Assembly (NCBI GenBank): GCA_016194445.1
Contig: JACQBP010000040.1
Coordinates: 20,402-84,401 of the forward strand
DNA length: 64,000 bases
Direction of reading: 5' to 3'
Source of the DNA: Candidatus Liptonbacteria bacterium
GTDB taxonomy: Bacteria > Patescibacteriota > Minisyncoccia > UBA6257 > 2-01-FULL-56-20
Made by a program: the position numbers and the translations under genes. Below are positions 29,862 to 48,415 of this stretch, in pieces (position 1 is the first letter of the stretch; the number at the start of each line of letters is the position of its first letter). Under the pieces are notes generated by a model, which saw nothing but the letters and a program-made list of their open reading frames with translations, had not been told where the DNA came from and did no database searches.

Positions 29862-32198
29862 TCAGATTGATATAGGCGAAAAATAGGGATTAAAAATGGT
29901 TCTAAAAGTTGCAGCACTAAAAGGCCAGTAGGTAAAATCGATAAGGTGATCCCCCCGAGAAAGGCGAACGCCTCGAAAAGTGGTGTGCGCGGTAATAATC
30001 TGACTTTCTTTGCCATCAACAAAAACGCGCCAGCCGGGATAATTGGTCTCGGCCAAAACTAGCAGGCCATCTCTCGCGGCATGAGTTTCAAGGGTGACGC
30101 GATTGGGTTCGCGGTGACTGATTATAACATCTTTTAGCGCTTGACCGTCTTCGGTTTCGATACGAGCGATGGGCAAGGCGGTTTTATTTTCATAAATTTT
30201 CACCTCGTGGTCATAGACGAGTGGGTAAGGAGCATCTTTGGGCAAAGGTTTTTCCGAAACAATATATTTAACACTGGCAACATTAAAAAGTGGCACGAAG
30301 TTTATATCACCTAACTTATCAGCTTCGCCAAAAACGTACATGTCAGACTCGCGCTTAAGAAAACCACCATCAAAAAGCGGTTTTAAACTATTCACGTACG
30401 ACTGAAGCAAGACACCTTCGTAATTACCCATGTTTTTAAGGCCATAGCCGGTGGGTATATGTTCCATCAACGTTCTTCCGATCGCAAGAATTCGATAGGA
30501 ATCAACGTCGGGGCGCGATTTTAAATATACAACAAAGGGTGGTTCTCGGTAGAGATCTTGGAGATTGGAAGTGTCTCGAAGTTTGGGAATATAAAAAACC
30601 ATCTCGACGATAAGGAAGACGAAAATGAGGTTAAAAAGCTTTTTCTTCCATAAAAACAAAAATAGGAGTAAAAAGAAAAAGGTGGTACCAAAAACCAAAG
30701 CCGCCACGGAATACGGATTGTGAATGAGCCAGTTGATGAAGTTTTGAAGAGGGGCTGGAAACCTGCCGATGTATAAACTTATCTTATTCAAATCAATTTC
30801 GTTGAAAACAAGTTTGTACGAGTGACGAAAGGAAGGAGAAAACACCATCAAGCCGGTGAAGGGACCTAAAAACGAGAGGAGGATCGCCCAAAATTTCTTG
30901 AGTGAGACATTTTGACTTTTCATATTCTCGAATCCGATGGCCGCAAGAATCGCAAGAGTAAAATGAAAAGCGCCCACGTATCGGAAAAAAGTCACCCTCT
31001 TTAACACCGGTAACCATTCTAACCAACTTACAGGTGGAACTCCTAGCCACATCAAAATAAAGAAAGACGCAGCTCCACCAAAAAATACAAGCGATGAGAT
31101 ATGCTCAGTTTTCTTCTTAAAACTGAAGGCGGCAATAGTAAGCAAGAGAATGAAGGTCCCCATATAGGTCACAATAAGACTGTCTTCTCTCATAGTGGAG
31201 GTTCCAACAATGCTAGCTTCCAGGAAAAGTGTGGGAGGGACAGGCAAGTGAAAGAATTTTTCTAACTGTACCAGGAAATGGTTATGCTCCGCACGATAAG
31301 CGTCGATCCACTCAACGGTATGCCCTTGCCCCCCAGACCCTTGGCTAAAAAAAAGAGACATATCCCAAAGCATAGGAAGGCTCATAATAAGCGCGACGCA
31401 CAGGGAAAAAATAAAGGCGCGGCCGGTAAATCGAAGGCTTATTTTACTGGTGAAATAGCGGTATACAAAATAGCTAAGAGAAAGGAGGGTAACAATGATG
31501 ACGGCTTCTGGATTACCGCTCAGTACCATAATCCCCCAGGCGATACCTAAAAAAAAGATGTTTTTAATAATAGGAGAGGATAGGAGGCGTTCAATCCCGA
31601 GGAGAAGATAGGGAGTCATCATGTCCGCGGCAAAACCCCAGTGAGTAATCCACAGCACAAAATACGCCGAAAACATATAGGCGACACCCCCGAGAAGCGC
31701 GCTTTGATGAGAAAGTCGCAGTTTTTTAAGAAAAAGGTAGGCTCCAAAGCCCGCGATTAGAAATCTAATAAGAAGATAGTAATCGAAGGTTTTTAGAAAC
31801 GGGAGGAGAGTGAAGAGCGCTAGTTTAAGCGGATTATATATACCGCTCGTGATGCTGGCGGAAAGCGGCTGACCGTTGCCTTGATATGGATTCCAGAAGG
31901 CGAAATGGCCTTTTCTTAGCTCCTGGGACCAGTAAAGAGTTTGAGGAACCTCAAAATGCGACCAATTAGTCGAGTCCAGATCCCAAAAAGTTTTGGGGCC
32001 GTGATAGTAATAAGATCCAGCGCTTAATGGCAAACCGGGACCATCGCTAAAAAAAGTTTGCTGGTTAATGATGATGCGAAAAAAAACAATCCCGATAAGA
32101 ACAGCGAAAAAAACGAAGGCTTTTTTACTCTGGCTTTGCCGACCAACGAAATTCTTTACTTGAGACAAGATATTGCTGAATGATCGGATTGTATTCAT
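29862..32198 (-). CDS. YfhO-family polytopic membrane protein (putative GT-C-type extracytoplasmic glycosyltransferase)
   Basis: 778 aa, many TM helices in the first two thirds and a large C-terminal soluble domain; architecture of YfhO. Confidence 0.5.
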   Translation of the reverse strand: MNTIRSFSNILSQVKNFVGRQSQSKKAFVFFAVLIGIVFFRIIINQQTFFSDGPGLPLSAGSYYYHGPKTFWDLDSTNWSHFEVPQTLYWSQELRKGHFAFWNPYQGNGQPLSASITSGIYNPLKLALFTLLPFLKTFDYYLLIRFLIAGFGAYLFLKKLRLSHQSALLGGVAYMFSAYFVLWITHWGFAADMMTPYLLLGIERLLSSPIIKNIFFLGIAWGIMVLSGNPEAVIIVTLLSLSYFVYRYFTSKISLRFTGRAFIFSLCVALIMSLPMLWDMSLFFSQGSGGQGHTVEWIDAYRAEHNHFLVQLEKFFHLPVPPTLFLEASIVGTSTMREDSLIVTYMGTFILLLTIAAFSFKKKTEHISSLVFFGGAASFFILMWLGVPPVSWLEWLPVLKRVTFFRYVGAFHFTLAILAAIGFENMKSQNVSLKKFWAILLSFLGPFTGLMVFSPSFRHSYKLVFNEIDLNKISLYIGRFPAPLQNFINWLIHNPYSVAALVFGTTFFFLLLFLFLWKKKLFNLIFVFLIVEMVFYIPKLRDTSNLQDLYREPPFVVYLKSRPDVDSYRILAIGRTLMEHIPTGYGLKNMGNYEGVLLQSYVNSLKPLFDGGFLKRESDMYVFGEADKLGDINFVPLFNVASVKYIVSEKPLPKDAPYPLVYDHEVKIYENKTALPIARIETEDGQALKDVIISHREPNRVTLETHAARDGLLVLAETNYPGWRVFVDGKESQIITAHTTFRGVRLSRGDHLIDFTYWPFSAATFRTIFNPYFSPISI

Positions 32199-33121
32199 TT
32201 TTTCTTAAAGACAAAGTTGGATCCCCAGGCGTAATTTTTATCGCCGGAAGGAACGAGGTTTGGGATGTGGACGAGTTCGCCTGATGAAGTAATGCCAAAA
32301 GATTGATAACCTAACTCGTATAAGGCTCGGATAGCGGGGAGGGAAAACTTTTCCCCAATTTTTCCTCTCCAGACCTCCATAAGGATAATCGGACTCGATT
32401 TCTCAAGAGTGTGTTGCCCTCCTTGGATAATGTTAAATTCGCTGCCCTCAACGTCAAGTTTAATAATGGTCGGGTGTTTTCGAGCGCGAACATATTCATC
32501 TAAAGTGGTGACGTCAACAGAGATTTCTTGATAGGTGGAAATATTTTGTTGGGCAACATTTTTTAAAAGGGTACCGCTGCCGCTTTCACCTTCGGCCGAT
32601 CCATCAAAAAATGGAAGGGATCCTTTGCAATCGGATAAAGCGACATTATTGAGAAAGATGTTTTTTCCTCCTCCCGAAAACACTGCGTCCAGATATTGGA
32701 ATATTTTAGGTGAAGGCTCGAACGCATGGATTTCTCCTTGAGTAATAAGTTCCCGAGCTAAAGAAGTGTAAAAACCGTAATGCGCGCCGATGTCGAAAAA
32801 CACGTCTTTTTCCTTAAGGTGCTCAAGAAGAAATAAAATTGATGGCTGTTCTTCGCGAGAGAGCGTACCGTAATAGTAAAGAGATTCGGCTTCTTCGAGA
32901 GACAGCAAGAGTTCCTTTTGCCAAAAAGTCTGGACTCGGAAATTCTTTGGCCGCCACCGTTTGCCCAAACTCATCAGGGTATGATAGGCAAGGTAACGAA
33001 CTCCATGATCGGCCAATTTTTTGAGTTTTCCCTTAAATGATGGATCGCTGGCCGCGAAAACATGTTTAGAGGCGGCTTGGGCGAGAGTGAGAAGGGTGAG
33101 TCTTTTTTCTTCTAAAGTCAT
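32195..33121 (-). CDS. FkbM-family methyltransferase
   Basis: FFDIGAHYGFYTSLAREL...IHAFEPSPKIFQYL. Confidence 0.55.
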   Translation of the reverse strand: MTLEEKRLTLLTLAQAASKHVFAASDPSFKGKLKKLADHGVRYLAYHTLMSLGKRWRPKNFRVQTFWQKELLLSLEEAESLYYYGTLSREEQPSILFLLEHLKEKDVFFDIGAHYGFYTSLARELITQGEIHAFEPSPKIFQYLDAVFSGGGKNIFLNNVALSDCKGSLPFFDGSAEGESGSGTLLKNVAQQNISTYQEISVDVTTLDEYVRARKHPTIIKLDVEGSEFNIIQGGQHTLEKSSPIILMEVWRGKIGEKFSLPAIRALYELGYQSFGITSSGELVHIPNLVPSGDKNYAWGSNFVFKKK

Positions 33122-33169: not shown

Positions 33170-34225
33170 CTAAGGAGGAAAAACTACTCGCAAGACTTCC
33201 TTCGCTCGGTTTACGTACGTATGTCGTCGTAAGGTCACCTGATAGAGCTGGCTGGCAATATTTTCTCGCTCCTCTTCGTGATTTAAGTAGTACTTAACCT
33301 GATCGGCCATTTCTTTAACAGAGCGGAAAGTGACTAAGTGTCCTTCAAATAATTGTTCCGCATCACGTTGATAGTCGGCGAGAGGAAAACTCCCAGCGAG
33401 AGCAGCCTCAAAGGCGCGGGGCGAGGGAGCGTCTTTATCGCGTGGATGTTCTGGGGCGAGCACAATTTTAGATCGGTTGTAAAGCACGTTCACTTCTTCG
33501 ATTGGTAACGACGAAGTGGTGATAACCTCAAGATTTTTCAAATGAGGAAACTCGGGGCGGCGAATTAATTTTTCTAATCCAGGCCCGGCCGCGCTGACCC
33601 GGAAACCTTCCGCGCAGAGATAATCCAAAATATAGGCCTTAGTAACGGTGGCGGTTGAAATCGAAGAAAACTGGCCCATTAAAAAAAGATCGATATCTTT
33701 TTTAAGACGGAGAGGTTTATAAAATCGCGGGTCACCTGCAAGGGGCAAAATGTGCATAGAAGCATCACTGATTAGGCGAAGGCTAGGAATAGCGGAACTA
33801 TTAATAAAGAAGAGATGGGAGCAATAGATTAAATTGGTAAGGAAATACGAACTGTTTTTAGCGGCGATTAAAGGATCGGCAAAGACCATGTAGGCAGTGG
33901 GGATTTTATAATATTTTTTTATTTTCTTGAAAAGTTTGATTGAAATTGAATTGAAATTATAGAAAAAGATCAAATCGGGCTTGAAAAGTTTTATTTTTTC
34001 TTCGTACTGAGCGCTATTCACTTCCTTGTATCGCTCCCAATATTTCAGGTTTAAGTAGGTAAAGGGAGTCCGGGAGAAGAATTTAAAAAGACCCAAGGAA
34101 ATGCGGTAATGATCATGAAAATATATTTCGGTGGTATGTCCCAAGGATTGAAACGAGTGCTCAAAACTTTCTGTAACCCGATCTAGTCCCCCGCCAGAAA
34201 ATATCAGGATTTTTTTAAAAGCCAT
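33170..34225 (-). CDS. CgeB-like / DUF3880 glycosyltransferase (paralog 2)
   Basis: LPLAGDPRFYKP...KDIDLFLMG and C-terminal VKYYLNHEEERENIASQLYQVTLRRHTY. Confidence 0.5.
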   Translation of the reverse strand: MAFKKILIFSGGGLDRVTESFEHSFQSLGHTTEIYFHDHYRISLGLFKFFSRTPFTYLNLKYWERYKEVNSAQYEEKIKLFKPDLIFFYNFNSISIKLFKKIKKYYKIPTAYMVFADPLIAAKNSSYFLTNLIYCSHLFFINSSAIPSLRLISDASMHILPLAGDPRFYKPLRLKKDIDLFLMGQFSSISTATVTKAYILDYLCAEGFRVSAAGPGLEKLIRRPEFPHLKNLEVITTSSLPIEEVNVLYNRSKIVLAPEHPRDKDAPSPRAFEAALAGSFPLADYQRDAEQLFEGHLVTFRSVKEMADQVKYYLNHEEERENIASQLYQVTLRRHTYVNRAKEVLRVVFPP

Positions 34226-34228
34226 AGT

Positions 34229-35167
34229 TTAAGAAATCAGCTTATAAGCTTTGAGTGTTCGGAGAATTCCTTCGTCTAGACTAATTTGCGGCTCCCAACC
34301 GAATTCTTTCTTGGCTTTTTCATGAGAGACGACGAAGCGGAGCATCTCGCCAGCCCTTTGGGGAAGGTAGAGAGGATGATTATCCGGCTGGCCTAGCAAC
34401 CGCGCAATCTTCTCATATAATACATTTAAAGTTATCTCCTGGCCGGATCCTAAGTTAAAAATAGGTTCGGGATGATGATCATCGAGTTCGAGAACTAGCA
34501 AATTGGCGCGAACAACGTCGTCAACGTAGACATAATCTCGGGTTAGATTGCCGTCGCCATACATCTCGGCATGCTGATGACTGGAAATTTTTCGAATATA
34601 ATCCGCCAGGGCACCCCCAATCTGTCGCGGCCCGTATACTGTAGCGTAGCGCAAAACGACGAAGGGAAGATTGTAGGCTTGGTTGAAAAACCGCAGGTAA
34701 TTTTCGGAGGCAATTTTTGAAATAGCGTAAGGAGAAATGGGCTGAGTGGGGTGTTGTTCGGTTAGTGGAAAACTATGGGTGTTTCCATACACAAAACTCG
34801 ATGAAGCCATCACGACTTTTTTCACTTTGGAACGGTGGGCGTTAAGAAAAATATTGAGCGACCCAGATATGCCCCGAGCGTCGAATAGTGGATTGACCAC
34901 TGACTGAGGAACATTAGTGTTGAAGGCTAAGTGATAGACAATATCGGGTTGTTCTTTTTTGAAAACATCCGAAACTTTTTCATCGCCCATATCGAGATGA
35001 TAAAAACGCGCCCGGGGATGGAGGTTTTCCTTCTTGCCAGTCGATAGATCATCAATAATAGAAACAGAAGCGCCAAGTTCAACTAAGGTGCCAACAAGAC
35101 GAGAACCGATAAATCCAGCTCCCCCGGTGACGATTATATTTTTATTAGATATATCAAATTTAGTCAT
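34229..35167 (-). CDS. NAD-dependent epimerase/dehydratase
   Basis: IIVTGGAGFIGSRLV; 312 aa. Confidence 0.65.
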   Translation of the reverse strand: MTKFDISNKNIIVTGGAGFIGSRLVGTLVELGASVSIIDDLSTGKKENLHPRARFYHLDMGDEKVSDVFKKEQPDIVYHLAFNTNVPQSVVNPLFDARGISGSLNIFLNAHRSKVKKVVMASSSFVYGNTHSFPLTEQHPTQPISPYAISKIASENYLRFFNQAYNLPFVVLRYATVYGPRQIGGALADYIRKISSHQHAEMYGDGNLTRDYVYVDDVVRANLLVLELDDHHPEPIFNLGSGQEITLNVLYEKIARLLGQPDNHPLYLPQRAGEMLRFVVSHEKAKKEFGWEPQISLDEGILRTLKAYKLIS

Positions 35168-36207
35168 GCCACAATTTTTAATATTGCTTCAGCTCTTTTG
35201 TGATAGGTATGTTGATTAAACGCAATAGAACGAATTTTCTGACTGATATGTTCTCTTGCGTTATTGTCACTGAGAAAGCTCTCCACAGTATCAAGCAATT
35301 CGCGAGCTGTGGTAATGGTGACAAGCTCGTTATTGAAAAGCTTGGGGGTATTAATTTTCGCATCAGTAATTAAAAAATTGCCACTTAAAGCGATGTCAAA
35401 CACGGGTTCACTAAAATCAGTCTTCAGAAGCAATGGGTTGATGTAGATAATTACCTTGGATCGATTATAAAGTTTATTTAACTGATCCTCTCGAGGAGCG
35501 GTGGCTTTAAGTTTAGGGAAGAAATAGCGGATTTTCCGAAAACCATCGCCCCTCACTTTGAAATTCAGTCCTGCCTGCTGTAAATGAGAAAGAAGAATGG
35601 CTCGCCCGAAACCAGAAACAATGTGGCGATCGTCCGGGAAAAAAGAGCCGACGAAAAGGAGGTCAATATCTTTTTGAAAAGAAAGTTTTTTGTATAGACG
35701 ATTGTCGCCAGCCATAGGTAGGTAAAACTTCGGAATATTAAAAAGCTGGAGGGATTGAGCCCATAATTCATCAATGACGAATAAATGAGAGTAAGCCGAG
35801 TAGTTAAGCCATCCGGTCGAGTGATACACGTCGATAGCGGCAGGTTCTTCCATAACCCAACAAGCCACGGGAATTTTGAACCTCGCTCGGATTTCGAAGA
35901 CGGTGGCGGGAAGAATGCTTTCGCCCCCGACTACCAAGACAAAGTCAGGATGAGAAGAAGCGATGGCGGCTAAAAGCTTTCGACTTAAAATCTCACGTTG
36001 TTTGGCATAATATCGCGCGATAGTTCCTTTGAGGGGGAGATAGGAAGCAAGCTTCGCGAATTCTAGCGGGAAACCTAGGTGATCGCCAAAAAATGCGGTG
36101 CGATGACCAAGTTCATCGAAAGCAGCTTGGATAGATTCTCCACACTGCCTATTAACACCTAGCCCTGAAACAAAAATAGTCATGGGCGGCACCTTAGTAT
36201 CCGGCAT
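35164..36207 (-). CDS. CgeB-like / DUF3880 glycosyltransferase (paralog 3)
   Basis: LPMAGDNRLYKK...KDIDLLFVG and C-terminal HTY motif. Confidence 0.5.
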   Translation of the reverse strand: MPDTKVPPMTIFVSGLGVNRQCGESIQAAFDELGHRTAFFGDHLGFPLEFAKLASYLPLKGTIARYYAKQREILSRKLLAAIASSHPDFVLVVGGESILPATVFEIRARFKIPVACWVMEEPAAIDVYHSTGWLNYSAYSHLFVIDELWAQSLQLFNIPKFYLPMAGDNRLYKKLSFQKDIDLLFVGSFFPDDRHIVSGFGRAILLSHLQQAGLNFKVRGDGFRKIRYFFPKLKATAPREDQLNKLYNRSKVIIYINPLLLKTDFSEPVFDIALSGNFLITDAKINTPKLFNNELVTITTARELLDTVESFLSDNNAREHISQKIRSIAFNQHTYHKRAEAILKIVA

Positions 36208-36446
36208 TTGAGCATTGTATAAGAAAGACTAACCTTATTCAAGAAGACAGATAAATCAGAAACCCGAAATTTTTCCCGGAGTGGTGGGTTTAGATCAATA
36301 GTTTTAGAGTGAAGCAGAATTCTCCGCAAACATCATTGATAAGGAGGGGTCGCCAACTATAACCGAAAAACCCTGCTGTTTTAGAAATTCTTTGAGCTTA
36401 ACGGAGCTTCCGATAATCGGATCATGAGTTTCGAGTGTAATGCTCT

Positions 36447-37091
36447 TTATCCGTTTAAGATAGGCCGGGGGGTATGAAAAATAATTTCAGACTCAGAACC
36501 TTCGCAATCTATTTTTAGAAAGTCGCAGCGTGAGATGTGATTTTTTTCAAAGATATCTGCAAGGGTTAGAGAATGAACGTCGAACTGGTCAGTTTGTCGC
36601 TGCCCAGGAATAGGAAAGAAGCTAGAGCCAGTTCTTTCGGAGAAAAAGTGGAGTCGGCGCAACCCACGCCGCCCGGAGACGGCAAGTTGAAAAGGAAAGA
36701 CTCGATCGCTTAATGCGTTCAAGTCGATATTGGCTTTCAAAAGAGAGAAGTTCTCAGGAAGAGGCTCGAAGCTAAAAACTTTTGCGCCTCGGATACGCTG
36801 GGCGGCCAAGATAGAGAAAACACCAATGTGAGCTCCAATATCCACAACCACCGCATTATTTTTGAGACGGGAAAGAAATCGGCCATAGTGATCGTAGGTT
36901 GCGATTTCTTTCAGCACGTGAATATCTCCCCGGCTTTTAACTAAAAACTGGGTGCTGTTCCGCAGTTTACAGATGACCGGTTTGGGTTTTTCAAATGTGA
37001 ACACAGAGGCCCAGAGTATCAGCGGCCAACTTTTGTAAACGCGAACGGTTCTAAACACCGACTTTATCTTGTGAAAATATTTCTGAAACAT
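36447..37091 (-). CDS. FkbM-family methyltransferase
   Basis: VVVDIGAHIGVFSILAAQRI...VFSFEPLPENFSLL. The longest ORF reaches 37238 but would overlap the upstream gene by 115 nt; the internal Met near 37091 is preferred. Confidence 0.5.
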   Translation of the reverse strand: MFQKYFHKIKSVFRTVRVYKSWPLILWASVFTFEKPKPVICKLRNSTQFLVKSRGDIHVLKEIATYDHYGRFLSRLKNNAVVVDIGAHIGVFSILAAQRIRGAKVFSFEPLPENFSLLKANIDLNALSDRVFPFQLAVSGRRGLRRLHFFSERTGSSFFPIPGQRQTDQFDVHSLTLADIFEKNHISRCDFLKIDCEGSESEIIFHTPRPILNG

Positions 37092-37122
37092 AGAGGAGAG
37101 TAAGGAGAGCAAGCAGAATTTT

Positions 37123-38253
37123 TTACGGATACCGTAAGCCAGCTTTTTGGAATATCTCAATAAAGCGTTTCTCATAGGTATGGTCACGAAGGGTTCGTGT
37201 GTACCCAGCGAGAGCAATACGTTCACGCTCATCTTCACGCTTAAGATAATACTTGATTTTTTTGATCAGCTCGGGAAGAGAGCGAAAGGCGACGATTTCT
37301 TTGTCGAGTTTATAATACTCGGGGAGGTCATGCGTCATTTGAGTGAGCACAAAACTTCTAGCCGCAAGGCAATTAAACGTCCTTGGCTTGATCATGGGAG
37401 TACGTTTCTGCCACCATTCCCTTATATTATTAAAGAAGTTACCGAAATCAGGGCGAATGCCCTCCTTAGATGGCTTCAAGAAGAAGCGCGCGAAAGGCTT
37501 GAGGCCTAGGTACGAAGAAGGCGGGTTGATATCAATGTTGATCTTCGTCGCGTGAACGACGGGAACCATTAAATCATCAGATAAACGTCCTTCCGGCCAT
37601 CCCGGTCCCCACACTGCGACAGAAATACCGGCTCGGCGGAGGGCGTGAATAACTTGCTCTCGATTGTGATACCAAGCACCAACAAAACTCACATCATACT
37701 TAAAACGATTAGGGCTTGGATTAGAGGGAGGAATAAAAAGCCGATGATTGGCCCCCAAATGCGTGCGGATTACCCGACATCCTAATTTCTCATATTTAGG
37801 AACCGCTTTCGAATAGGTGGTCGCAACCCAAGATAAATGGGGCGCGCCAAATTTTGAAGAGTTGTCGAAATGCCAGTGATCATCCATAAAAAAACCGATG
37901 CTAGTGGTCATCGCTTTGATCGCATCAAGAGTGGCAAAAGTAAGATCTTCGTAATACATGATGCTTAAAAAGGCGTCGGGTTTTTCCCGACGAACCAGAT
38001 CTAGGAGTTCCTGATTGACGCCTTTGGCTCCGACAGATTCCACGCGATCATACTCATAATACACTACTTGAAGGTTGGGGAGTCGTCGCAGACTGTCGTA
38101 TATATTCGAATGATCAAAAGAAAATCCTTGGGCGGGATCGTGGTTGTAGTATTTATTGCCGGCGTATAGAATGCGCAACATGATACGGATGTTGTTTATA
38201 GAGCTTAGATAATAATTGCATTCAACCCGCGGCGTGAGCGCGCTGTAATTCAC
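37123..38253 (-). CDS. CgeB-like / DUF3880 glycosyltransferase (paralog 4)
   Basis: FFMDDHWHFDNSSK...SWVATTYSKA and IKYYLKREDERERIALAGYTRTLRDHTY; closest paralog of 10071..11117. Confidence 0.5.
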   Translation of the reverse strand: MNYSALTPRVECNYYLSSINNIRIMLRILYAGNKYYNHDPAQGFSFDHSNIYDSLRRLPNLQVVYYEYDRVESVGAKGVNQELLDLVRREKPDAFLSIMYYEDLTFATLDAIKAMTTSIGFFMDDHWHFDNSSKFGAPHLSWVATTYSKAVPKYEKLGCRVIRTHLGANHRLFIPPSNPSPNRFKYDVSFVGAWYHNREQVIHALRRAGISVAVWGPGWPEGRLSDDLMVPVVHATKINIDINPPSSYLGLKPFARFFLKPSKEGIRPDFGNFFNNIREWWQKRTPMIKPRTFNCLAARSFVLTQMTHDLPEYYKLDKEIVAFRSLPELIKKIKYYLKREDERERIALAGYTRTLRDHTYEKRFIEIFQKAGLRYP

Positions 38254-39022
38254 TTCTCAGATTAACTAATAGAACAAGATATCCACGCAAGCCATCATTG
38301 ATGAAGTTATTACCGAAGGCTTCTTGCGCTGTGTATTGCGGAAAGAAGACTTGATAATCATGCTGGGCATTAAGCGCGGGCGATATAAATTCAAGATCAT
38401 ATGAGCGTACTTTTCCTAATGCATATTCATAAACATCATGGCCAAAATCGCTCCGTTCCGGAACCACAAAATCATCAATAATAACTATTGCTTGTTGCAA
38501 GCTTGATAAAGCCCGGAGTTCTTCTTGGAGTGGAACATTCCCCCCACTGTGAGCATCAAGAAAAAAGAAGGGTCTTTCCCCTAAAGCTTTTTGCTTAACC
38601 AAGCGGTTCACAAAAACTGGAGACGATAATTGCTGGATGATTACCCCCGGCGCCTTGTGAAGTCGCCACCGACTTTCCCGAAAATATGGGCCAGATATTT
38701 CGCAGGTATAAATCGGCATACGAGTCGAAGCCAATTTGGCTAGAAAAAGCGTTGTGGTGGTCTTGTGCGTTCCTGTTTCCACAAGCGCGGTCGGTCGAAA
38801 TTCCTCAATTATCTCGGATACTAATTCGCGCAATACCCGATCACCGTGAAAACCATAAAAAGTTACATCGGGATACCGACGCCAACGATATGGTACTAAT
38901 TGACGCCACGCACCGAGTTTGTTCCAAAACCAGCTGGGACTCCGTTTAAGAACAACGAGAAATAAAAAAAACCTTGGCCAGCGTTGTAATTTTTGCTTAA
39001 GTATCTGATTCATCTTAATCAT
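38222..39022 (-). CDS. class I SAM methyltransferase, Methyltransf_24/CmcI-like (paralog of 11129..12136)
   Basis: ALVETGTHKTTTTLFLAKL...IYTCEISGPYFRESRWRL and FFLDAH...IIDDFVVP. Confidence 0.45.
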   Translation of the reverse strand: MIKMNQILKQKLQRWPRFFLFLVVLKRSPSWFWNKLGAWRQLVPYRWRRYPDVTFYGFHGDRVLRELVSEIIEEFRPTALVETGTHKTTTTLFLAKLASTRMPIYTCEISGPYFRESRWRLHKAPGVIIQQLSSPVFVNRLVKQKALGERPFFFLDAHSGGNVPLQEELRALSSLQQAIVIIDDFVVPERSDFGHDVYEYALGKVRSYDLEFISPALNAQHDYQVFFPQYTAQEAFGNNFINDGLRGYLVLLVNLRSELQRAHAAG

Positions 39023-39028
39023 TAGAAA

Positions 39029-40021
39029 CTATGATAGCAGTGAAAGTAGAGTATGAACCCGATTGTGAAAAGTATGTTCCTTCAAAACCTTTGCGGTAGC
39101 TTTGGATTGCATCACTTTTCGTTCTTCTTCATGAGCCAAGTAATATGCGACGACTTCAAACCAGTCTCTGTTAATTTTGGGCATTGCCAACTCATCTTCA
39201 TCAAAAAACTCTCGTATTTGGGGTACATAGTCACACACTTCAAATCCTCCACTAGCGGGTATTTTGAAAGTTCTGGCATTAATAGTCCTTATATCAGCAC
39301 CAGGTTGTTTTTCGTGAAAATTGATACTGATTTTTGCCGAGGCATATGCCGAACCTTCTAAATCAATCGGAACTTGCCGCATAAGCCTTAGTTTTGATAT
39401 TACCCCACTTCCAAAAATCGTTCGCTCAATTTTTACGAGAGGATGCAAAAAGTTTCGATCAATAAAATCCCAACCGAAACCATAAATTTTTACATGGTAC
39501 TTTTTTGCAAGCGGGAAAAGTATACGCTCGAAAGCTTCTCGTTTCTTTGGAAGATTGGCCCCGATATAGATAATATCACAATTGTATTTCGGGATGGGTT
39601 TTGCCGTACCATGAATTTTCCTTGACGCGGCAAGCCAATGCATTTTTTTGAAACGATACGCCGGAAAACTTTGAAATTCAACAGTGGGATCCACTTCTGA
39701 AAAATAGACGTCTACAATCTCATCTCTTTTTATAGCGAGCGCCAATTCGGGAGACATTGCACCATGTAGCACTACTTTGCCGCCTTGCCGTTTAAAGTTT
39801 CTCAATACGTCAATCTTTTTTTCCAAATCGTGGATCAAAAATCCGCCTTCTTCTATAAAAATATCCGGCTTAAAGGAGGTGAGTGTTTTCAATAAATCTT
39901 CTTTTTCAGTTAAAGGGTAAACCTCGTGTCCAAAATCTTCAAACGCGTTTTTATAGCCCTCATAGGTAAAGCGATCGTCACCGAGTCCGTAAGGGTAAAG
40001 GATGTGATAGAGAATTTTCAT
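39029..40021 (-). CDS. CgeB-like / DUF3880 glycosyltransferase (paralog 5)
   Basis: C-terminal FEVCDYVPQIREFF...VVAYYLAHEEERKVMQSKATAKVLKEHTF. The ATG at 40099 overlaps the upstream GT2; the Met at about 40021 abuts it. Confidence 0.45.
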   Translation of the reverse strand: MKILYHILYPYGLGDDRFTYEGYKNAFEDFGHEVYPLTEKEDLLKTLTSFKPDIFIEEGGFLIHDLEKKIDVLRNFKRQGGKVVLHGAMSPELALAIKRDEIVDVYFSEVDPTVEFQSFPAYRFKKMHWLAASRKIHGTAKPIPKYNCDIIYIGANLPKKREAFERILFPLAKKYHVKIYGFGWDFIDRNFLHPLVKIERTIFGSGVISKLRLMRQVPIDLEGSAYASAKISINFHEKQPGADIRTINARTFKIPASGGFEVCDYVPQIREFFDEDELAMPKINRDWFEVVAYYLAHEEERKVMQSKATAKVLKEHTFHNRVHTLLSLLS

Positions 40022-40851
40022 ACGCTTAGAGTATGAAATAAATTTTTTATTCGGTTGTGGATTTTGGGGAAATGATTTTTTAAAAATCCGAAAAACCATT
40101 GGAAGTAGACGTTTTTTAGATAAAGGAAGTAGAAACGCGATCGGCAGCTGGCTCCGTTTCTAAAATTGACTTTTTTGGTTTCTCGCCACGACCGGGCATG
40201 GCTACTGGTTGTTTTTCGACCCTCGTGTTCTAGGGTGACTTGAAATACTCGTGGATAATAAAGTAGTTTAGCGCCACTTTTTACAATCCGCAAGAATAAA
40301 TCGTGTTCGGCGACATGACGGAGAGATTCATCGAAGCCACCGACTTGATTGATAAATTTTCTTTTGAAAATAGCGGAGCTTTGAGGAATTTGGCAGGCGC
40401 CATTAATTATATCATTCAGGGTGTAAGGTCGGTGATGGATGGTTGTTTGCTCACCACTTGGGAAAAGGGTGTCGTGGTTGCCATAAATTAAATCGATGTT
40501 GGGGTGAGAAATAAGCTGACTCATAAAGTCTTGGATGGCTCCGGGGACGAGAAAGTCGTCGGAGTTAAGGATGGTGATGTATTCACCAGTGGCTTTCTGA
40601 AGCCCTTTATTCATTGCTTCACCTTGGCCAGAGTCTCTCTCTGAAATCCAAGAAAATAAAAACCCGCGCTTTTGAAATTTAGCTTCGCAGTTTTTAAGTA
40701 GAAGGATGGTGTTGTCGGTGGATTTGGCATCGATGACTAACTGTTCAATGTGAGGGTAAGTTTGCTCAAGCACGCTTGCGAGGGTTTTTTCTAAAAGAAC
40801 TCGACGATTCAGGGAGGTGGTGATAATGCTTAAAAGAGGGGTGTTTGTCAT
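40018..40851 (-). CDS. family 2 glycosyltransferase
   Basis: LSIITTSLNRR...IDAKSTDNT...NSDD. Confidence 0.6.
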   Translation of the reverse strand: MTNTPLLSIITTSLNRRVLLEKTLASVLEQTYPHIEQLVIDAKSTDNTILLLKNCEAKFQKRGFLFSWISERDSGQGEAMNKGLQKATGEYITILNSDDFLVPGAIQDFMSQLISHPNIDLIYGNHDTLFPSGEQTTIHHRPYTLNDIINGACQIPQSSAIFKRKFINQVGGFDESLRHVAEHDLFLRIVKSGAKLLYYPRVFQVTLEHEGRKTTSSHARSWRETKKVNFRNGASCRSRFYFLYLKNVYFQWFFGFLKNHFPKIHNRIKNLFHTLSV

Positions 40852-41792
40852 GGGACGCGATTTAATAGTAAACTCCGAATGACCCTCATGAAAGAGTTTT
40901 TGAAATTATCGAAGATGAGGAAGGGTTTATAGCCAAAGGTTGCAAAACCAGAATATAAAATATTTTTAAAGGAGGGTTGACGTTGTCTTGAGCGTTTTAA
41001 GAAGAGCCTTCCTTTGTCGACTTGGCTCGCGCGCATGTAAACCAACCCGCCAAAAAAACAAAGCCAACTGATGGCTTCTTCGCCTTGGTTTTCGTAAAGT
41101 TTTTCATATTTGGTAAAGAAATTTTCGAAGGAACGAACGAAACGCTTATGATACTCGGAGGAAGAAAGGGCACTTGATGAAGGGCGTGTTCGTAAAAAAT
41201 ACAGCCGAAGGGGAACATCGATAACGTATCCTCGAAAATGTTGCCGAAACTGAAGATGGAGGTCAAGATCTTCAAAACCACTCATACTCGGATCGGAGTG
41301 AATACCGAACTTTTCAAAAGCTGACTGGCGAAAAACCCAGCCGTTACCGATGGATAATTTCCAAAAGGGTTCTAATTGCGGTAGATAATAAGTTTTCCGA
41401 CCAAACTCATCTTCGTTGATGACTCCTCCGCTTAGATAGGCAACGTCGGCTGGCAGATGGCGGAAGGCCTCGACGGCTTTTTGAACGTACTCCGGCAAGT
41501 AGGCGTCATCGTGGTCGTTAAACGCGATAAACTCTCCTTGAGCTTGTTTGATGCCAAAATTTTTGGCGACAGATTGCCCTCCATTTTTTAACTTAAAATA
41601 CTTCAGGCGAGGCTCGTGGGTCATTAAATTTTTTACCTTTTCTTCGGTATCATCTGTTGATCCGTCGTCGATGACTAGGCATTCGATGTTTTGGTAGGTT
41701 TGATCAAGAACACTCTTTATAGATCGATTCATTAAGATCTTTGATAAGTTGAAGGTGGGTATGATAATGCTAACTTTAGGATTATAAGACAT
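40848..41792 (-). CDS. family 2 glycosyltransferase
   Basis: VSIIIPTFN...VIDDGSTDDT...NDHDD. Confidence 0.65.
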   Translation of the reverse strand: MSYNPKVSIIIPTFNLSKILMNRSIKSVLDQTYQNIECLVIDDGSTDDTEEKVKNLMTHEPRLKYFKLKNGGQSVAKNFGIKQAQGEFIAFNDHDDAYLPEYVQKAVEAFRHLPADVAYLSGGVINEDEFGRKTYYLPQLEPFWKLSIGNGWVFRQSAFEKFGIHSDPSMSGFEDLDLHLQFRQHFRGYVIDVPLRLYFLRTRPSSSALSSSEYHKRFVRSFENFFTKYEKLYENQGEEAISWLCFFGGLVYMRASQVDKGRLFLKRSRQRQPSFKNILYSGFATFGYKPFLIFDNFKNSFMRVIRSLLLNRVP

Positions 41793-41822: not shown

Positions 41823-42785
41823 TTACCGTTTCGAGGCGCAGTTATTCAAATACCAAGTGATGGTTTCTTTTACTCCTTCTTTTAGATTTTTGGCTGGCTC
41901 GAAACCCCAATTGTTTTTGACGTAAGAGATATCGAGGGTCCGAGTTGAATCAGCTCCAACAGCTCCAACCCATTCAATCTTTCCTTTAAAGCCGGCTGCT
42001 GTGGCTATTATAACTGAAAGATCGCGAAGATTTATTTTTTTTCCGGTACCGATATTGATGGGATTTTCTAATGGGCGCGATTTAAGTGATTGGACAATAG
42101 CCTCGGCGGCATCACTTATATAGAGAAATTCTCTTTCGGCTAGGCCGGTGCCTGAAAAAGTTATTTTCTCTTCATTGCTTGAAACAGCAATACATATTTT
42201 TTTTACCATGTAAGAGAAAAAAGATTGGGATTTTTTGCAGTCTCCCCAGGGACCGTAAAGATTCGGAAAGATTAGATAAGCGGAGTCAAGGTTGTATTGT
42301 TTATGATAAGCCTGACAGCCAACAAGGATCGCTAATTTCGCGATTGCGTAAGACGCGTTCGCTTCTTCTGGATATCCTTGCCAAAGATAAGATTCTTTAA
42401 ATGGCGCAATTGCGTTTGCTGGATAACTATTAATACTTCCGACAAAAATGGTTTTTTTTATTTTTGCTTCACGAGAAGCTTCAAGGACATTTAACCCCAT
42501 CAAAATGTTTTCATAAAAAAATTGACCGGGGGCTTTTTTTTGATCGGTGCTGTCGCCTACTTTACCAGCAAGGTGAATGACGTAGTCACATTTATTAACA
42601 GCCTTAACGCAATCTTCTTTAATTAAAAAATCGCACTCGGCGAAAGTTGGAGTGATAAGATTACTTTTTGGAAAACCTTTGGAAAGCAGTCTCCCAATGA
42701 CGTAGGAGCCTAAAAAACCCCTAGCACCGGTTATAAGTATGCGGGATTTTTCGGGAGAAGGAACAGAATTTGCGTTAATCTCCAT
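41823..42785 (-). CDS. NAD-dependent epimerase/dehydratase
   Basis: ILITGARGFLGSYVIGRL; 320 aa. Confidence 0.6.
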   Translation of the reverse strand: MEINANSVPSPEKSRILITGARGFLGSYVIGRLLSKGFPKSNLITPTFAECDFLIKEDCVKAVNKCDYVIHLAGKVGDSTDQKKAPGQFFYENILMGLNVLEASREAKIKKTIFVGSINSYPANAIAPFKESYLWQGYPEEANASYAIAKLAILVGCQAYHKQYNLDSAYLIFPNLYGPWGDCKKSQSFFSYMVKKICIAVSSNEEKITFSGTGLAEREFLYISDAAEAIVQSLKSRPLENPINIGTGKKINLRDLSVIIATAAGFKGKIEWVGAVGADSTRTLDISYVKNNWGFEPAKNLKEGVKETITWYLNNCASKR

Positions 42786-43503
42786 GGACGTCCCGGTGGA
42801 TGTTTCCTTTTGCCGCCCAGAGACTAGCCTCCAGAAGAGAACCGAAGGTTCCAGCGTCAGCCCAGAAACCAGAAATATTCCCGTAGTTTAGTTTTTTGAT
42901 TTCGGCGTATTTATTTAAGGCGTCGGTAATTTCGAGTTCTCCTCTGCCCGAAGGTTTTAACTCGGAAATTATCTCAAAGACCACTTTATCAAAAAGATAA
43001 AACCCGGTTACGGCGTACCTGGATTTTGGATTTTCCGGTTTTTCCTCAACTTTAACGATTTCCCCTTTTTCAAAAACAGGCACACCAAAACGCTTGAGAT
43101 CGGAAACTTCTTTAAGAAAAATTTTGGCTCCGATTTTGAACTCGTTAACATCTTTTTCGAAATTATCATCAAAAATATTGTCGCCTAGGATCACGGCTAT
43201 GGAGTCGCCTTTGGAAAAATCTCTGGCTTTTTTTAGGGCCTCCGCAATCCCGCCGGCGCCAATCTGAGGAGCGTAAGTAAGGGAAACCTGATGGTCTACG
43301 CCGTTTTTCAAAAAATTAGAAAAAAGCTCGAGGTGTGAGCTTTCTGAAACAATCAAAATTTCGTCGATGCCGCTCTTGCGCAGAGTTGCGATCGGATAGA
43401 AAATCATCGGCCGATCATAAATAGGCAGAAGATGTTTGTTAGTAACGCCAGTGAGAGGAAGCAAGCGCGTTCCAAACCCACCAGCCAAGATAACTCCCTT
43501 CAT
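42775..43503 (-). CDS. rmlA: glucose-1-phosphate thymidylyltransferase-like nucleotidyltransferase (short RmlA form)
   Basis: MKGVILAGGFGTRLLPLTGVTNKHLLPIYDRPMIFYP aligns closely with the RmlA N-terminus; 242 aa, shorter than canonical. Confidence 0.55.
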   Translation of the reverse strand: MKGVILAGGFGTRLLPLTGVTNKHLLPIYDRPMIFYPIATLRKSGIDEILIVSESSHLELFSNFLKNGVDHQVSLTYAPQIGAGGIAEALKKARDFSKGDSIAVILGDNIFDDNFEKDVNEFKIGAKIFLKEVSDLKRFGVPVFEKGEIVKVEEKPENPKSRYAVTGFYLFDKVVFEIISELKPSGRGELEITDALNKYAEIKKLNYGNISGFWADAGTFGSLLEASLWAAKGNIHRDVHGD

Positions 43504-43589
43504 AAAATAGATTTAGATAATAATTAAGCCTATTCAATCTAAGATAGAAAGTCTTTTTTGTAAAGGAGAAATAGAGGATTTCCTTGGAG

Positions 43590-44660
43590 CTATTGCTTGG
43601 TTTCGGTTTTTTTCTGATTTAGATCGTGCCCGCCCCATAGTTCAATGTGGGGGTTAAAAACTCCGGTTTTTTTTCTGATAGCATCAACCCAATTTGGGTT
43701 GCCTAAATACCACTCGATGGTTTCCTTAAAGGCTTTTTCAAATGAAGCTTTCGGCTTCCAGCCAAGCTCATTCCTGATTTTGCTAGAGTCAATAGAATAC
43801 CTTCGGTCGTGCCCTGGTCGCTCAGCGACGAATTCAGTTTTAGATTTATTGTTGTTGAAATATTTCAGGATGGCGTTGGCTATTTCCAGATTATTTTTTT
43901 CGTTATCTGCCCCAATATTATAAACTTCACCAGCTCGACCATTAAAAAGACAAAGGGTTAGAGCTTCGCAGTGATCGAGGACGTAGATCCAATCTCTGAC
44001 GTGCCTTCCATCGCCATAGAGTGGGAGGGTTTCCCCTTCCATTGCCCGCACAATAAAGAATGGAATGAGCTTCTCGGGATACTGGAAAGGGCCGTAGTTG
44101 TTTGAACAGTGGGTGACAACAACTGGGACTTCCCAGGTTGAAAAGTACGCTCCGCAAAGCAGATCTCCGCCGGCTTTGGTGGCGGAGTAGGGTATATGAG
44201 GAGCAAAGGCGGTGGTTTCAGTAAAACGGTTTCTACTATCTAACTCGAGAGATCCATAGACTTCATCGGTTGAGACTTGGAGGTATTTTTCTACTTTGTG
44301 ATTTTTTAGATATTCTAAAAAATTAAAAGGCCCCCATATGTTGGTTTGGATAAAGGATTCGGCGCCGATGTGGATACTCCGATCGACATGAGTTTCGGCG
44401 GCGAAATTTATAATGTAAGAAGGCTTAAAAGAATCTAAAGCTTTAAAGAGAAAAGTTTTATTGACAATATCTCCTTCAACGAATTGGTAGCGGGGATGAT
44501 TTTTGACATCCTGCAGATTTTCCAAATTACCAGAGTAAGTAAGCTTGTCGTAATTCAAAATCGAAAAGTTAGGGTTTTTATTAAGAAGATAGCGGATAAA
44601 ATTTGACCCGATAAAGCCGGCGCCGCCGGCAACAAAAAATTTTTCGTCTTTCAAAGACAT
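43590..44660 (-). CDS. rmlB: dTDP-glucose 4,6-dehydratase
   Basis: FFVAGGAGFIGSNFIRYLL...NYDKLTYSGNLENL...FAAETHVDRSI tracks the RmlB/RfbB N-terminal consensus. Confidence 0.7.
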   Translation of the reverse strand: MSLKDEKFFVAGGAGFIGSNFIRYLLNKNPNFSILNYDKLTYSGNLENLQDVKNHPRYQFVEGDIVNKTFLFKALDSFKPSYIINFAAETHVDRSIHIGAESFIQTNIWGPFNFLEYLKNHKVEKYLQVSTDEVYGSLELDSRNRFTETTAFAPHIPYSATKAGGDLLCGAYFSTWEVPVVVTHCSNNYGPFQYPEKLIPFFIVRAMEGETLPLYGDGRHVRDWIYVLDHCEALTLCLFNGRAGEVYNIGADNEKNNLEIANAILKYFNNNKSKTEFVAERPGHDRRYSIDSSKIRNELGWKPKASFEKAFKETIEWYLGNPNWVDAIRKKTGVFNPHIELWGGHDLNQKKTETKQ

Positions 44661-44696
44661 GATATAGAAAAATTTAACATACTTACTTTCAGAAGT

Positions 44697-44726
44697 GAAA
44701 CCCCCGTGGTAAGACGGGGGTTGGAA
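44697..44726 (-). terminator. hairpin (cccccgt...acggggg) between the LhgO-like stop and rmlB start
   Basis: Perfect 7-bp G/C stem; weak U-tract on the minus strand. Confidence 0.3.
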
Positions 44727-44736
44727 AGGGAAACTC

Positions 44737-45849
44737 TCAAGTAGTCAGCATTGAGGCAACATAACGGCCAATGGCAAGACAAGAAGTGAGTCCAGGAGAT
44801 TCAATGCCGATTAAGTTGACTAAGTGAGGGGAGCAGCTGTCTAAGTGGATCCCGAAGTCATCCTCACCGACGGCGGGGTTGGTTTTGGAGCGAAGACCAG
44901 CGTAAGCCCAAGTTAGATCTCCCTCTTCAAGATCGGGCAGGAAACGCTGAGCGCCTTCTAAAAACTCTTGGGGGGGAGTTTTCTCAAAAGAGTTCCGAGA
45001 TCGGTTCCCCGCCGGCTTAGCGTTTGGTCCGATTAGAAGGCGATTATTCGAAGCGGGTTTGGTTAGGTGGATACCCTTCACGGGATGGCCTGGTCTGAGA
45101 GCAGGATAGACTAAGGTGCGTTGAATGAGGTTGGCTTTCCCACCAGTCACTTCGTAATACTCACCCCGCCAAGGATAGTGACGATAGTGACAAAACCCAG
45201 CTTGATTGGCAAAGATATCAGCCGAGAGACCAGCGGCATTCACGACAATGGGGGCTGAAAAATCTCCTTCGGTGGTCTCGACTAGGTAGTTCCGTCCAAC
45301 CTTAATGAGGGAGAAAACTTCAGTTTGGAATTGCAGACGGATGCCTTGAGAGCGGCACGTCGCCGCCAGTTTTTTCCCCAGAGCAGGCTGGTCAACGACC
45401 CAAACGTCTTCCAGGTAAATACCCAAAGAAGCTCGCACTTCCGGCTCAAGTTCTCGAATCCCACGAGAGGAGAGAACATGAAGATGGAGGTTTTGGCTAT
45501 GGCTATTTCGCCAAAGCAACCAGAGGTGATGAACTTCGGCGGCGAGATGTCTGAAATCGCGACTTGAAGCAACGATCAACATGCCCGACTGGCGAATGGG
45601 AACCTGGTGGAGCTTACAGAAATCGACTAGCTCCCGGCTTCCCTCTCGAGCAAGTTTGGATTTTAAGAGCCCGGGTCTTTGATGAACCCCAGTGTGAATA
45701 ACGCCGCTGTTGTAAAGGCTGGTTTCGCCAAACTCATGAGGGTTTTTCTCCAGAACAGCGACAGTTCTTTCAGGAAACCTTTGCTTGGCGGCGAGAGCTA
45801 CGCCGAGACCGACAGCACCAGCGCCGATGATTAAGATATCTGTTCTCAG
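44737..45849 (-). CDS. FAD-dependent oxidoreductase of the L-2-hydroxyglutarate oxidase (LhgO/YgaF) family, probable CTG start
   Basis: The ORF track gives only the Met-started 281 aa part (44737..45582). The frame stays open upstream to 45849 and encodes DILIIGAGAVGLGVALA (FAD Rossmann) and VAVLEKNPHEFGETSLYNSGVIHTGVH, matching the E. coli LhgO N-terminus. AGGAGG lies 6 nt before a CTG at 45847-45849. Confidence 0.5.
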   Translation of the reverse strand: MRTDILIIGAGAVGLGVALAAKQRFPERTVAVLEKNPHEFGETSLYNSGVIHTGVHQRPGLLKSKLAREGSRELVDFCKLHQVPIRQSGMLIVASSRDFRHLAAEVHHLWLLWRNSHSQNLHLHVLSSRGIRELEPEVRASLGIYLEDVWVVDQPALGKKLAATCRSQGIRLQFQTEVFSLIKVGRNYLVETTEGDFSAPIVVNAAGLSADIFANQAGFCHYRHYPWRGEYYEVTGGKANLIQRTLVYPALRPGHPVKGIHLTKPASNNRLLIGPNAKPAGNRSRNSFEKTPPQEFLEGAQRFLPDLEEGDLTWAYAGLRSKTNPAVGEDDFGIHLDSCSPHLVNLIGIESPGLTSCLAIGRYVASMLTT

Positions 45850-45952
45850 TTAGGACCTCCTTTAAGTTTAAAACCCAGTGTAAAATGACCGAAAATAGTA
45901 TAGCTGGTTTAATGAAGGATAGTCAAATATGAGAGGCGAGGAAAAGACAAAT

Positions 45953-46900: not shown

Positions 46901-46901
46901 A

Positions 46902-47687: not shown

Positions 47688-47730
47688 ACAAATCTACGCA
47701 TGAGGGAAAAGTTTTGAAAAGAAGTAATCG

Positions 47731-48402: not shown

Positions 48403-48415
48403 ATTTCTATAGAAT

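Follow-up and report, generated by a model that had tools for sequence, protein, structure and literature searches.

Does the alternation of related glycosyltransferase (GT) genes with genes for sugar-modifying enzymes, as found in one array of a bacterium of the candidate phyla radiation (CPR), mark a new kind of assembly line or an ordinary polysaccharide gene cluster? The array lies in a stretch of 64,000 nucleotides (hereafter, the window) from Candidatus Liptonbacteria, an ultra-small groundwater CPR bacterium with a reduced genome (assembly GCA_016194445.1, contig JACQBP010000040.1, positions 20,402 to 84,401). One glycan-biosynthesis island fills most of the window, from about 3 kb to 54 kb, and almost all genes are on the minus strand. 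Five of them encode CgeB-like glycosyltransferases, four of which form the array. We conclude that these paralogs add new, uncharacterised members to a known family and belong to a familiar type of cluster, and that their arrangement is that of a normal polysaccharide gene cluster and not that of a new assembly line. All coordinates below refer to the window.

The five CgeB-like proteins and their divergence

The five open reading frames (ORFs), all on the minus strand, span 10071-11117, 33170-34225, 35164-36207, 37123-38253, and 39029-40099 and are numbered #1 to #5 in that order. Gene calls on an independent assembly place the most likely starts of #4 and #5 at 38181 and 40021, and the latter gives an ATGA overlap with the stop codon of the upstream family 2 glycosyltransferase (GT2) gene. 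With these starts, the genes are as follows.

10071-11117, minus strand: paralog #1, 348 aa, motif RPFE, 22 kb from the array
33170-34225, minus strand: paralog #2, 351 aa, motif RAFE, the protein used for structure prediction
35164-36207, minus strand: paralog #3, 347 aa, motif EPVFD
37123-38181, minus strand: paralog #4, 352 aa, motif RTFN, with a C-domain insertion of about 20 residues in common with #1
39029-40021, minus strand: paralog #5, 330 aa, C-domain motif RTFK rather than R-x-F-E

All five proteins exceed the gathering score (25 bits) of the Pfam family PF13524 (Glyco_trans_1_2), with 98.8, 88.8, 59.4, 88.9, and 66.4-66.7 bits for #1 through #5, and the Pfam scan assigned them to no other glycosyltransferase family, the canonical family 4 (GT4) domain PF00534 included. 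A first-pass annotation of this DNA had proposed that the five share a C-terminal signature, and our alignment bears this out. The pattern YYL..ER…HTY..R is present in every copy (YYLSHDKEREAIAQSAYQRTLQDHTY, YYLNHEEERENIASQLYQVTLRRHTY, YYLKREDERERIALAGYTRTLRDHTY, YYLAHEEERKVMQSKATAKVLKEHTF, and the weaker SFLSDNNAREHISQKIRSIAFNQHTY); it is clean in #1, #2, and #4, ends in HTF in #5, and is degenerate in #3 (SFLSDNNARE…HTY). The label DUF3880 (PF12996) given to them in the same annotation fails the Pfam threshold of 25.2 bits in all five, with #4 reaching 15.4 bits (E 0.022) and the other four giving no match even at E = 10, in a comparison where a Paenibacillus CgeB-family control (P0017) scores 73.3 bits. 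NCBIfam yielded no match for any paralog, and the controls, which carry the NCBI name 'CgeB family protein', hit no CgeB model there either. No paralog contains a segment resembling a membrane span (maximum KD19 of 1.4 or less).

A profile search ties the paralogs to Paenibacillus proteins named 'CgeB family' by NCBI (E 1e-41), and pairwise BLASTP with such proteins gives 22-28% identity over most of the length (E 1e-8 to 1e-21), so that the suggested comparison with CgeB relatives establishes full-length homology. A single-sequence phmmer query against 1.84 billion representatives returned 4,297 cluster representatives at E ≤0.001, 428 at ≤1e-10, and only 17 at ≤1e-30, and many of the matches hold the domain within proteins of 700-2,000 aa. 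The literature agrees with the earlier remark that CgeB is poorly characterised biochemically, since only weak in-vitro activity has been reported and the structure has not been solved (PMC13577073).

For the fold, an AlphaFold2 (AF2) model was made of #2 only, from a 34-sequence alignment, and the GT-B fold is assigned to the other four by homology. The model (predicted local distance difference test score, pLDDT, 92.6; predicted template modeling score, pTM, 0.90) has two Rossmann-like halves with a beta-alpha-beta pattern in both, as had been anticipated for a GT-B enzyme. Foldseek searches of the PDB with this model gave 361 matches at E ≤0.001, and the 50 matches listed comprise glycosyltransferases only, most of them GT-B enzymes of the GT4 type. 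The top matches, which comprise ManT, glycogen synthase, TreT, MshA, BshA, GlgM, and PimB', have E values of 6e-13 to 1e-10 and template modeling (TM) scores of about 0.7 (0.65-0.72). The best of them is ManT (7qsg), the methylmannose polysaccharide mannosyltransferase, which is marginally ahead of dozens of GT4 structures. Although GT4-type structures (ManT 7qsg, MshA 3c4q, BshA 3mbo, PimB' 3oka, TreT 2x6q, and glycogen synthase 3l01) are nearest to the model, the paralogs differ from them in showing just 9-15% sequence identity, in profile links that are marginal (E 0.001 or weaker), and in the family-specific ER…HTY..R C-terminal helix. The R-x-F-E motif of the paralogs presumably stands where GT4 enzymes carry EX7E. 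A profile built from the five paralogs matched, among PDB sequences, only the respiratory syncytial virus nucleoprotein, and these matches are spurious. By homology and by the predicted model of #2, the assignment of all five proteins as diverged GT-B glycosyltransferases of the PF13524/CgeB-like family is supported.

Near-identical tandem copies would have pointed to collapse or expansion of the assembly, but the copies are well diverged. Pairwise protein identity is 21-39%, with BLASTP E values between copies of 6e-84 to 1e-3, and homology is thus far beyond chance. The closest pairs are #1 and #4 (38% identity, E 6e-84) and #2 and #3 (32%, E 1e-42); #1 and #2 are 26% identical over most of their length, and for all other pairs the alignment is confined largely or wholly to the C-terminal part (22-40% identity). 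At the DNA level only two matches between copies were found, of 39 and 56 bases. Furthermore, an independent Logan assembly of run SRR12113410, made from the same read set as the deposited one, agrees with the window in every base of a 17,056-base stretch that includes the array. Assembly collapse or expansion and recent duplication were therefore rejected, and the paralogs are real and old.

Orthologues of each copy can be found elsewhere. Relatives were recovered from metagenomes and one GTDB genome; those used were L001, L002, L008, L009, L018, and L004, and the array census covers five related loci. L008 (CAYTEE010000016.1, labelled as a Saccharibacteria metagenome-assembled genome) was the sole locus that the genome scan with an orthogroup alignment returned, and the metagenome scan gave L009 and two distant loci, with the shared genes of L009 yielding the same BLAST matches as those of L008. 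In a neighbor-joining tree every window paralog falls into a separate clade with members from L001, L002, L008, or L004. Identity of the orthologues to the window proteins is 54-71% for #5 (L008, L001, and L018), 44-56% for #4 and 36-54% for #3 (L008 and L001/L002 in both cases), 59-76% for #2, and 51% for #1 (L004).

Ten residues are kept in all five paralogs (P83, D84, D179, G184, K253, F272, R320, H335, T336, and R340 in the numbering of #2). A motif that aligns with R269/E272 of T4 beta-glucosyltransferase instead varies by orthogroup: RPFE in #1, RAFE in #2, EPVFD or QxIFN in #3, RTFN in #4, and RTFK in #5, with the motif arginine missing from the whole #3 orthogroup. We take R-x-F-E to be a putative nucleotide-binding motif whose variation may reflect diversified donor recognition. 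The age of the paralogs and the conservation of a separate orthogroup for each make individual donor or acceptor specificities probable. The insertion of about 20 residues in #1 and #4 precedes this motif and is missing in #2, #3, and #5; a protruding helix has been reported in the C-terminal domain of Bacillus subtilis CgeB.

Gene order in the array and in its relatives

The genes that are interleaved with the paralogs or flank them are listed here.

11129-11962, minus strand: methyltransferase resembling catechol O-methyltransferase (COMT) and YrrM, 277 aa, directly upstream of #1 and a paralog of the gene at 38222
29862-32198, minus strand: YfhO-like polytopic membrane protein (PF09586, 37.6 bits), its start overlapping the FkbM stop by 4 nt
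32195-33121, minus strand: intact FkbM methyltransferase (PF05050, 72.7 bits; TIGR01444, 96 bits, above cut-off)
34229-35167, minus strand: short-chain dehydrogenase/reductase (SDR), an NDP-sugar epimerase/dehydratase (PF01370, E 1e-54)
36304-37091, minus strand: frameshifted FkbM methyltransferase (ORF 36447-37238, matching only PF05050 profile positions 1-129 of 173)
38222-39022, minus strand: COMT/YrrM-type class I S-adenosylmethionine (SAM)-dependent methyltransferase, by profile and fold
40018-41792, minus strand: two GT2 (GT-A) genes directly upstream of #5 (PF00535)

Judged by its domain, the SDR is a nucleotide-sugar enzyme, and it scores under every NCBIfam equivalog cut-off. Since it would act before transfer, it is not a tailoring step between sugar additions. 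In every related locus an orthologue (50-76% identity) is found within the array. In the FkbM gene that separates #4 from #3, the frame is lost at a run of six C residues (36467-36472), beyond which the expected C-terminal sequence (…AYLKRIKSITLETHD…FAENSASL) reads on in another frame; the C-terminal third lies in that frame and ends at a stop codon at 36304-36306. The second assembly shows the same frameshift, and L018 holds an intact orthologue of 265 aa. The window copy is probably a pseudogene or a phase-variable 'off' state.

The methyltransferase at 38222 had been labelled Methyltransf_24, which holds at the superfamily level but not for the Pfam model itself, as the protein has no Pfam match even at E = 10. 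It is 37.6% identical to the product of the 11129-11962 gene (E 4e-34), which gives weak, sub-threshold matches to Methyltransf_3 and Methyltransf_24. A profile of the two proteins (locus tags HY093_04190 and HY093_04315) finds catechol O-methyltransferases in the PDB (E 2e-4), and an AF2 model of the 38222 protein (pLDDT 91.3) has COMT as its top Foldseek matches (E 5e-8). Residues E82-T83-G84, D156-A157-H158, and D184 are invariant in 40 homologues. Homologues go by the name 'class I SAM-dependent methyltransferase' or 'O-methyltransferase YrrM'. Profile and model thus indicate that both are COMT/YrrM-like class I methyltransferases. The family of these proteins comprises 414 matches (homologues P0184-P0301), is mostly missed by Pfam, and is common to CPR bacteria and DPANN archaea (Pacearchaeota and Nanoarchaeota). 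Because the 11129 gene lies directly upstream of #1, the window has two methyltransferase-GT gene pairs, and in each the COMT-like gene directly precedes a GT of the #1/#4 type. Such a pair recurs in Liptonbacteria GWB1_49_6, with one gene inserted between its members; in L008, L001, and L002 no COMT-like gene stands before the #4-type GT.

The order GT / SDR / GT / FkbM / GT / methyltransferase / GT noted in the first-pass annotation is correct, with the FkbM gene frameshifted. Perfect alternation of four GT genes with three others is 1 of 35 possible orderings by our own arithmetic. In the direction of transcription, the window and its relatives compare as follows (MT, methyltransferase).

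Window: GT2, GT2, #5, MT, #4, FkbM (frameshifted), #3, SDR, #2, FkbM, YfhO
L008: GT2, GT2, #5, #4, #3, SDR, #2, extra, extra, FkbM
L001/L002: #5, SDR, #4, #3, #2, FkbM, extra, GtrA-fused membrane protein
L018: GT2, GT2, #5, SDR, MT, FkbM, #4/#1-type

The GT order #5-#4-#3-#2 is kept in L008, L001, and L002, and in L008 the genes for #5, #4, and #3 are directly adjacent. The upstream GT2 pair is kept with the array in L008 and L018 (orthologues of 54-60% identity), and extra CgeB-like copies appear in related loci. In contrast, L008, L001/L002, and L018 either lack the SDR, COMT-like methyltransferase, or FkbM gene or carry it in a different slot. Because these slots differ among relatives, strict alternation is one permutation and not a conserved module, and because other permutations are seen, it carries no mechanistic weight. 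To judge from these loci, the GT order is a stable scaffold on which accessory genes move, vanish, or decay. The earlier proposal of a 'module-like iteration' therefore does not hold, since it is not conserved in the relatives and one of the alternating methyltransferases is frameshifted here. Of the stepwise addition of differently modified sugars that was derived from it, what remains is that the diverged GTs probably act in a stepwise pathway; the modular iteration and the SDR as a tailoring step fall away.

The surrounding glycan island

Further genes of the island bear on the substrate and the fate of the glycan.

3115-6200, minus strand: GDP-D-glycero-D-manno-heptose-type set comprising a nucleotidyltransferase, a HAD phosphatase, a SIS isomerase, and a GHMP kinase (Pfam)
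12135-13616, plus strand: Wzx-type flippase (PF01943, E 1e-39)
13621-14037, plus strand: small ArnF/SMR-like membrane protein (ArnF, E 1.6e-7, below cut-off)
14097-14834, minus strand: DPM1-like GT2 (PF00535)
41823-51874, minus strand: nucleotide-sugar genes, namely RmlA/RmlB-like, GDP-mannose 4,6-dehydratase (Gmd), three GDP-fucose-synthase-like SDRs, and more SDRs (Pfam)
52505-53929, minus strand: Wzy_C/O-antigen-ligase-like membrane protein (PF04932, 69.1 bits)

The heptose pathway is assigned to the 3115-6200 set on the basis of the established GmhA/HddA/GmhB/HddC route, and an SDR, a methyltransferase, and two GT2 enzymes are encoded in the window as well. The 41823-51874 segment also holds a third FkbM methyltransferase and a NUDIX protein (Pfam). 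In total, the window contains five GT2 genes, and at least 10 SDR genes and at least six methyltransferase genes belong to the island. No PF00534 gene was found among the scanned window ORFs, so that the CgeB-like proteins are the only GT-B enzymes of the island. Neither a Wzz-type chain-length regulator nor, among the window ORFs, a CgeA-like acceptor or sporulation gene was seen. We rejected a flagellin-glycosylation island, with which a comparison had been suggested, because the window has no flagellar or Maf-type genes.

To the left of the window, the same contig carries a 453-aa phosphoglycosyl transferase (PF02397, Bac_transf) about 5-6 kb off (within 6.9 kb), and a 372-aa gene with its start beyond the window reaches in as the ORF at 58-930. 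Because genes continue past the left edge as far as Bac_transf, the whole island is about 60 kb and the window lacks its initiating enzyme. Beyond that edge (L016, 13007-20286) are a GT2, a second Wzx-like flippase, a nucleotidyltransferase, a DUF218 protein, an SDR, and the Bac_transf gene. The priming Bac_transf, the Wzx flippase, and the Wzy_C-family protein are thus all in the same island. Distant homologues of the paralogs likewise reside in Wzx/Wzy/Wzz/Poly_export loci (L005-L007) and, in L004, beside Bac_transf and Wzx.

Several other features were recorded. The island is interrupted at 1167-2856 by short overlapping ORF debris (1167-1822) that includes an apparent fragment of a phosphatase gene, by a small-gene pair, DUF2283 and DUF4258 (1825-2296), and by an AAA_33-like ORF (2470-2856). 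A block at 15411-25836 encodes a B12-binding radical SAM protein, a cytidylyltransferase, a PanB-like protein (PF02548, E 2e-85), a class I/II aminotransferase, a three-domain thiamine pyrophosphate enzyme resembling acetolactate synthase, a DegT aminotransferase, an SDR, and a cytidylyltransferase-PfkB fusion; its product may be a branched-chain sugar or an unusual acyl substituent. A part with PanB, cytidylyltransferase, radical SAM, NUDIX, and GT2 genes recurs in Liptonbacteria GWB1_49_6 (L012). The DPM1-like GT2, the ArnF/SMR-like protein, and the YfhO-like protein (the last of these probably a GT-C enzyme that acts in decoration outside the cytoplasm) are reminiscent of a three-component system that adds a sugar outside the membrane; in L001/L002 the array ends instead with a large GtrA-fused membrane protein. 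An FAD-dependent (DAO) oxidoreductase ORF at 44737-45582 (PF01266) begins at profile position 100. The same frame, however, runs upstream (to 45953) through a GAGAVG (GxGxxG) dinucleotide-binding motif and offers no ATG, GTG, or TTG start; N-terminal truncation was therefore dropped as an explanation, and the sequence suggests a non-canonical start codon or a lesion. Scans of the window for tRNA genes and Rfam families found nothing, promoters were not enriched, and no terminator was seen to separate the genes.

A proposed pathway, its rivals, and its place among known systems

We think it likely that the paralogs are soluble, cytoplasmic GT-B enzymes of an island for a lipid-linked surface glycan and that each adds one sugar. 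From the gene content we infer a lipid-linked acceptor, with the CgeB-like enzymes using the carrier of the Wzx-dependent pathway, as well as the donors and the targets of methylation. The pathway would begin with the priming of polyprenyl phosphate by the Bac_transf phosphoglycosyl transferase. The five CgeB-like enzymes and several GT2 enzymes would then extend the glycan at the cytoplasmic face, one specific sugar per enzyme, drawing on the GDP-heptose, GDP-6-deoxyhexose, and dTDP-6-deoxyhexose pathways of the island, and some residues would be O-methylated by the COMT-like and FkbM methyltransferases. Wzx would flip the product, and the Wzy_C-family protein would polymerise it or ligate it to an acceptor, after which the DPM1-like GT2, ArnF-like, and YfhO-like proteins may decorate it further outside the membrane. 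The interleaved SDR and methyltransferase genes would be movable accessories whose variation between relatives would diversify the glycan.

Several observations weigh against this pathway. B. subtilis CgeB, the one namesake that has been studied, has been proposed to glycosylate a protein (Thr112 of CgeA) and not a lipid-linked glycan (PMC13577073). Between the array and the priming enzyme, which is not in the window, are some 40 kb and a small toxin-antitoxin-like insertion, and the island may therefore encode more than one glycan. In the PDB, the 34-sequence profile reaches only the inverting T4 beta-glucosyltransferase (E 0.0012) and the GT4 (retaining-type) enzyme ManT (E 0.0074), both weakly and to a similar degree. 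Finally, either the arginine or the acidic residue of R-x-F-E is missing from each of #3, #4, and #5, and what has changed, or been lost, in them could be nucleotide binding itself and not specificity.

That the paralogs might instead be protein O-glycosyltransferases, which work in the cytoplasm, need no lipid carrier, and attach sugars one after another directly to a surface protein (a pilin or S-layer protein, for instance), is suggested by the proposed role of CgeB and its weak UDP-glucose-dependent activity (PMC13577073), and by the full-length homology of the window proteins to the Paenibacillus 'CgeB family'. We nevertheless regard this as unlikely. The island has a full lipid-carrier kit (Bac_transf, two Wzx-type flippases, and the Wzy_C protein), relatives of the paralogs occur in Wzx/Wzy and lipooligosaccharide (LOS) core loci, no gene for a candidate acceptor protein lies in or beside the array, and the DUF3880 domain of true CgeB-family proteins was not detected in the paralogs.

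The pairing of methyltransferase and GT genes raises another idea, the strongest form of the modular proposal in the first-pass annotation, namely that they form an alternating add-then-methylate polymerisation machine for a polymethylated polysaccharide. Mycobacterial ManT works with MeT1 and MeT3 in methylmannose polysaccharide synthesis, and ManT is the best structural match of the #2 model; the COMT-like methyltransferase and GT pair is present twice, with about 38% identity between the copies of both partners, recurs in GWB1_49_6, and sits in an island with at least six methyltransferase genes. This machine is nonetheless quite improbable in our judgment. ManT barely leads dozens of other GT4 structures, no methyltransferase gene adjoins the #4 orthologues of L008 and L001/L002, the methyltransferases of L018 are clustered and not paired with GTs, this genome carries a frameshift in one of the alternating methyltransferases, and the GT paralogs are diverged and not iterative copies. 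As for the view that the copies arose in assembly, or are recent duplicates that are redundant or in decay and have no function of their own, the frameshift in the neighboring FkbM gene and the substituted motif residues of #3, #4, and #5 are what such decay might leave. Against it stand the low protein identity, the absence of DNA matches longer than 56 bases, the agreement of the second assembly over 17,056 bases, the conserved orthologues of every paralog, motif substitutions that are common to whole orthogroups, and the retention of all 10 other family-conserved residues, which together make it very improbable.

The paralogs and their island can be set beside several known systems. Like B. 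subtilis CgeB/YkvP (PF12996 plus PF13524), the paralogs have a C-terminal PF13524 domain, a two-domain GT-B architecture, and a length in the range of about 320-380 aa; unlike those proteins, they show no detectable DUF3880/YkvP_N, have neither a sporulation context nor a CgeA-like neighbor, and come from a CPR host. CgeB is, moreover, a single gene in the cgeAB operon, whereas here an array of four to six genes stands in a lipid-carrier polysaccharide island. The same Pfam family includes GtrOC2, GtrOC17, and GtrOC21 of the Acinetobacter baumannii LOS outer-core loci, which are likewise variable surface-glycan loci that mix GT-A and GT-B enzymes (PMC10327509). Polysaccharide and LOS loci of this kind have one PF13524 gene among several PF00534 genes, whereas all GT-B genes are PF13524-only here. 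As in Wzx/Wzy clusters for O-antigen, capsule, and S-layer glycans, the island combines Bac_transf, flippase, Wzy_C, and nucleotide-sugar genes with interspersed GT and methyltransferase genes, and its accessory genes turn over between relatives. It departs from typical clusters in its reduced-genome CPR host, in its unusually large size (about 60 kb), and in having no Wzz seen in the window. A literature search on CgeB-like enzymes outside Bacillus or on CPR glycan islands found nothing specific.

A broader and rather unlikely possibility is that, in Liptonbacteria and their relatives, a lineage-specific radiation of CgeB-like enzymes took over the GT-B work from canonical GT4 enzymes. The motif variants (RAFE/RPFE, RTFN, RTFK, and EPVFD) would then be dedicated to different activated donors, for example GDP-heptose, a GDP- or dTDP-linked 6-deoxyhexose, or a donor of non-nucleotide type, and the recurrent COMT-like methyltransferase and GT would form a coupled add-then-methylate unit. 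If so, these ultra-small bacteria would make a surface glycan that is rich in O-methyl groups, varies between strains, and serves in host recognition.

PF13524 is a large family almost devoid of enzymology and has no solved structure that can be linked to it by sequence search. The locus and its relatives offer a natural panel of five to six diverged paralogs for the study of PF13524 specificity: the orthologues are conserved, the putative donor-site motifs differ, and neighboring genes point to a defined set of candidate nucleotide-sugar donors. For the organism itself, a bacterium with a reduced genome spends about 60 kb on a complex and probably methylated surface glycan, and the island is thus relevant to how CPR cells present themselves to hosts and phages.

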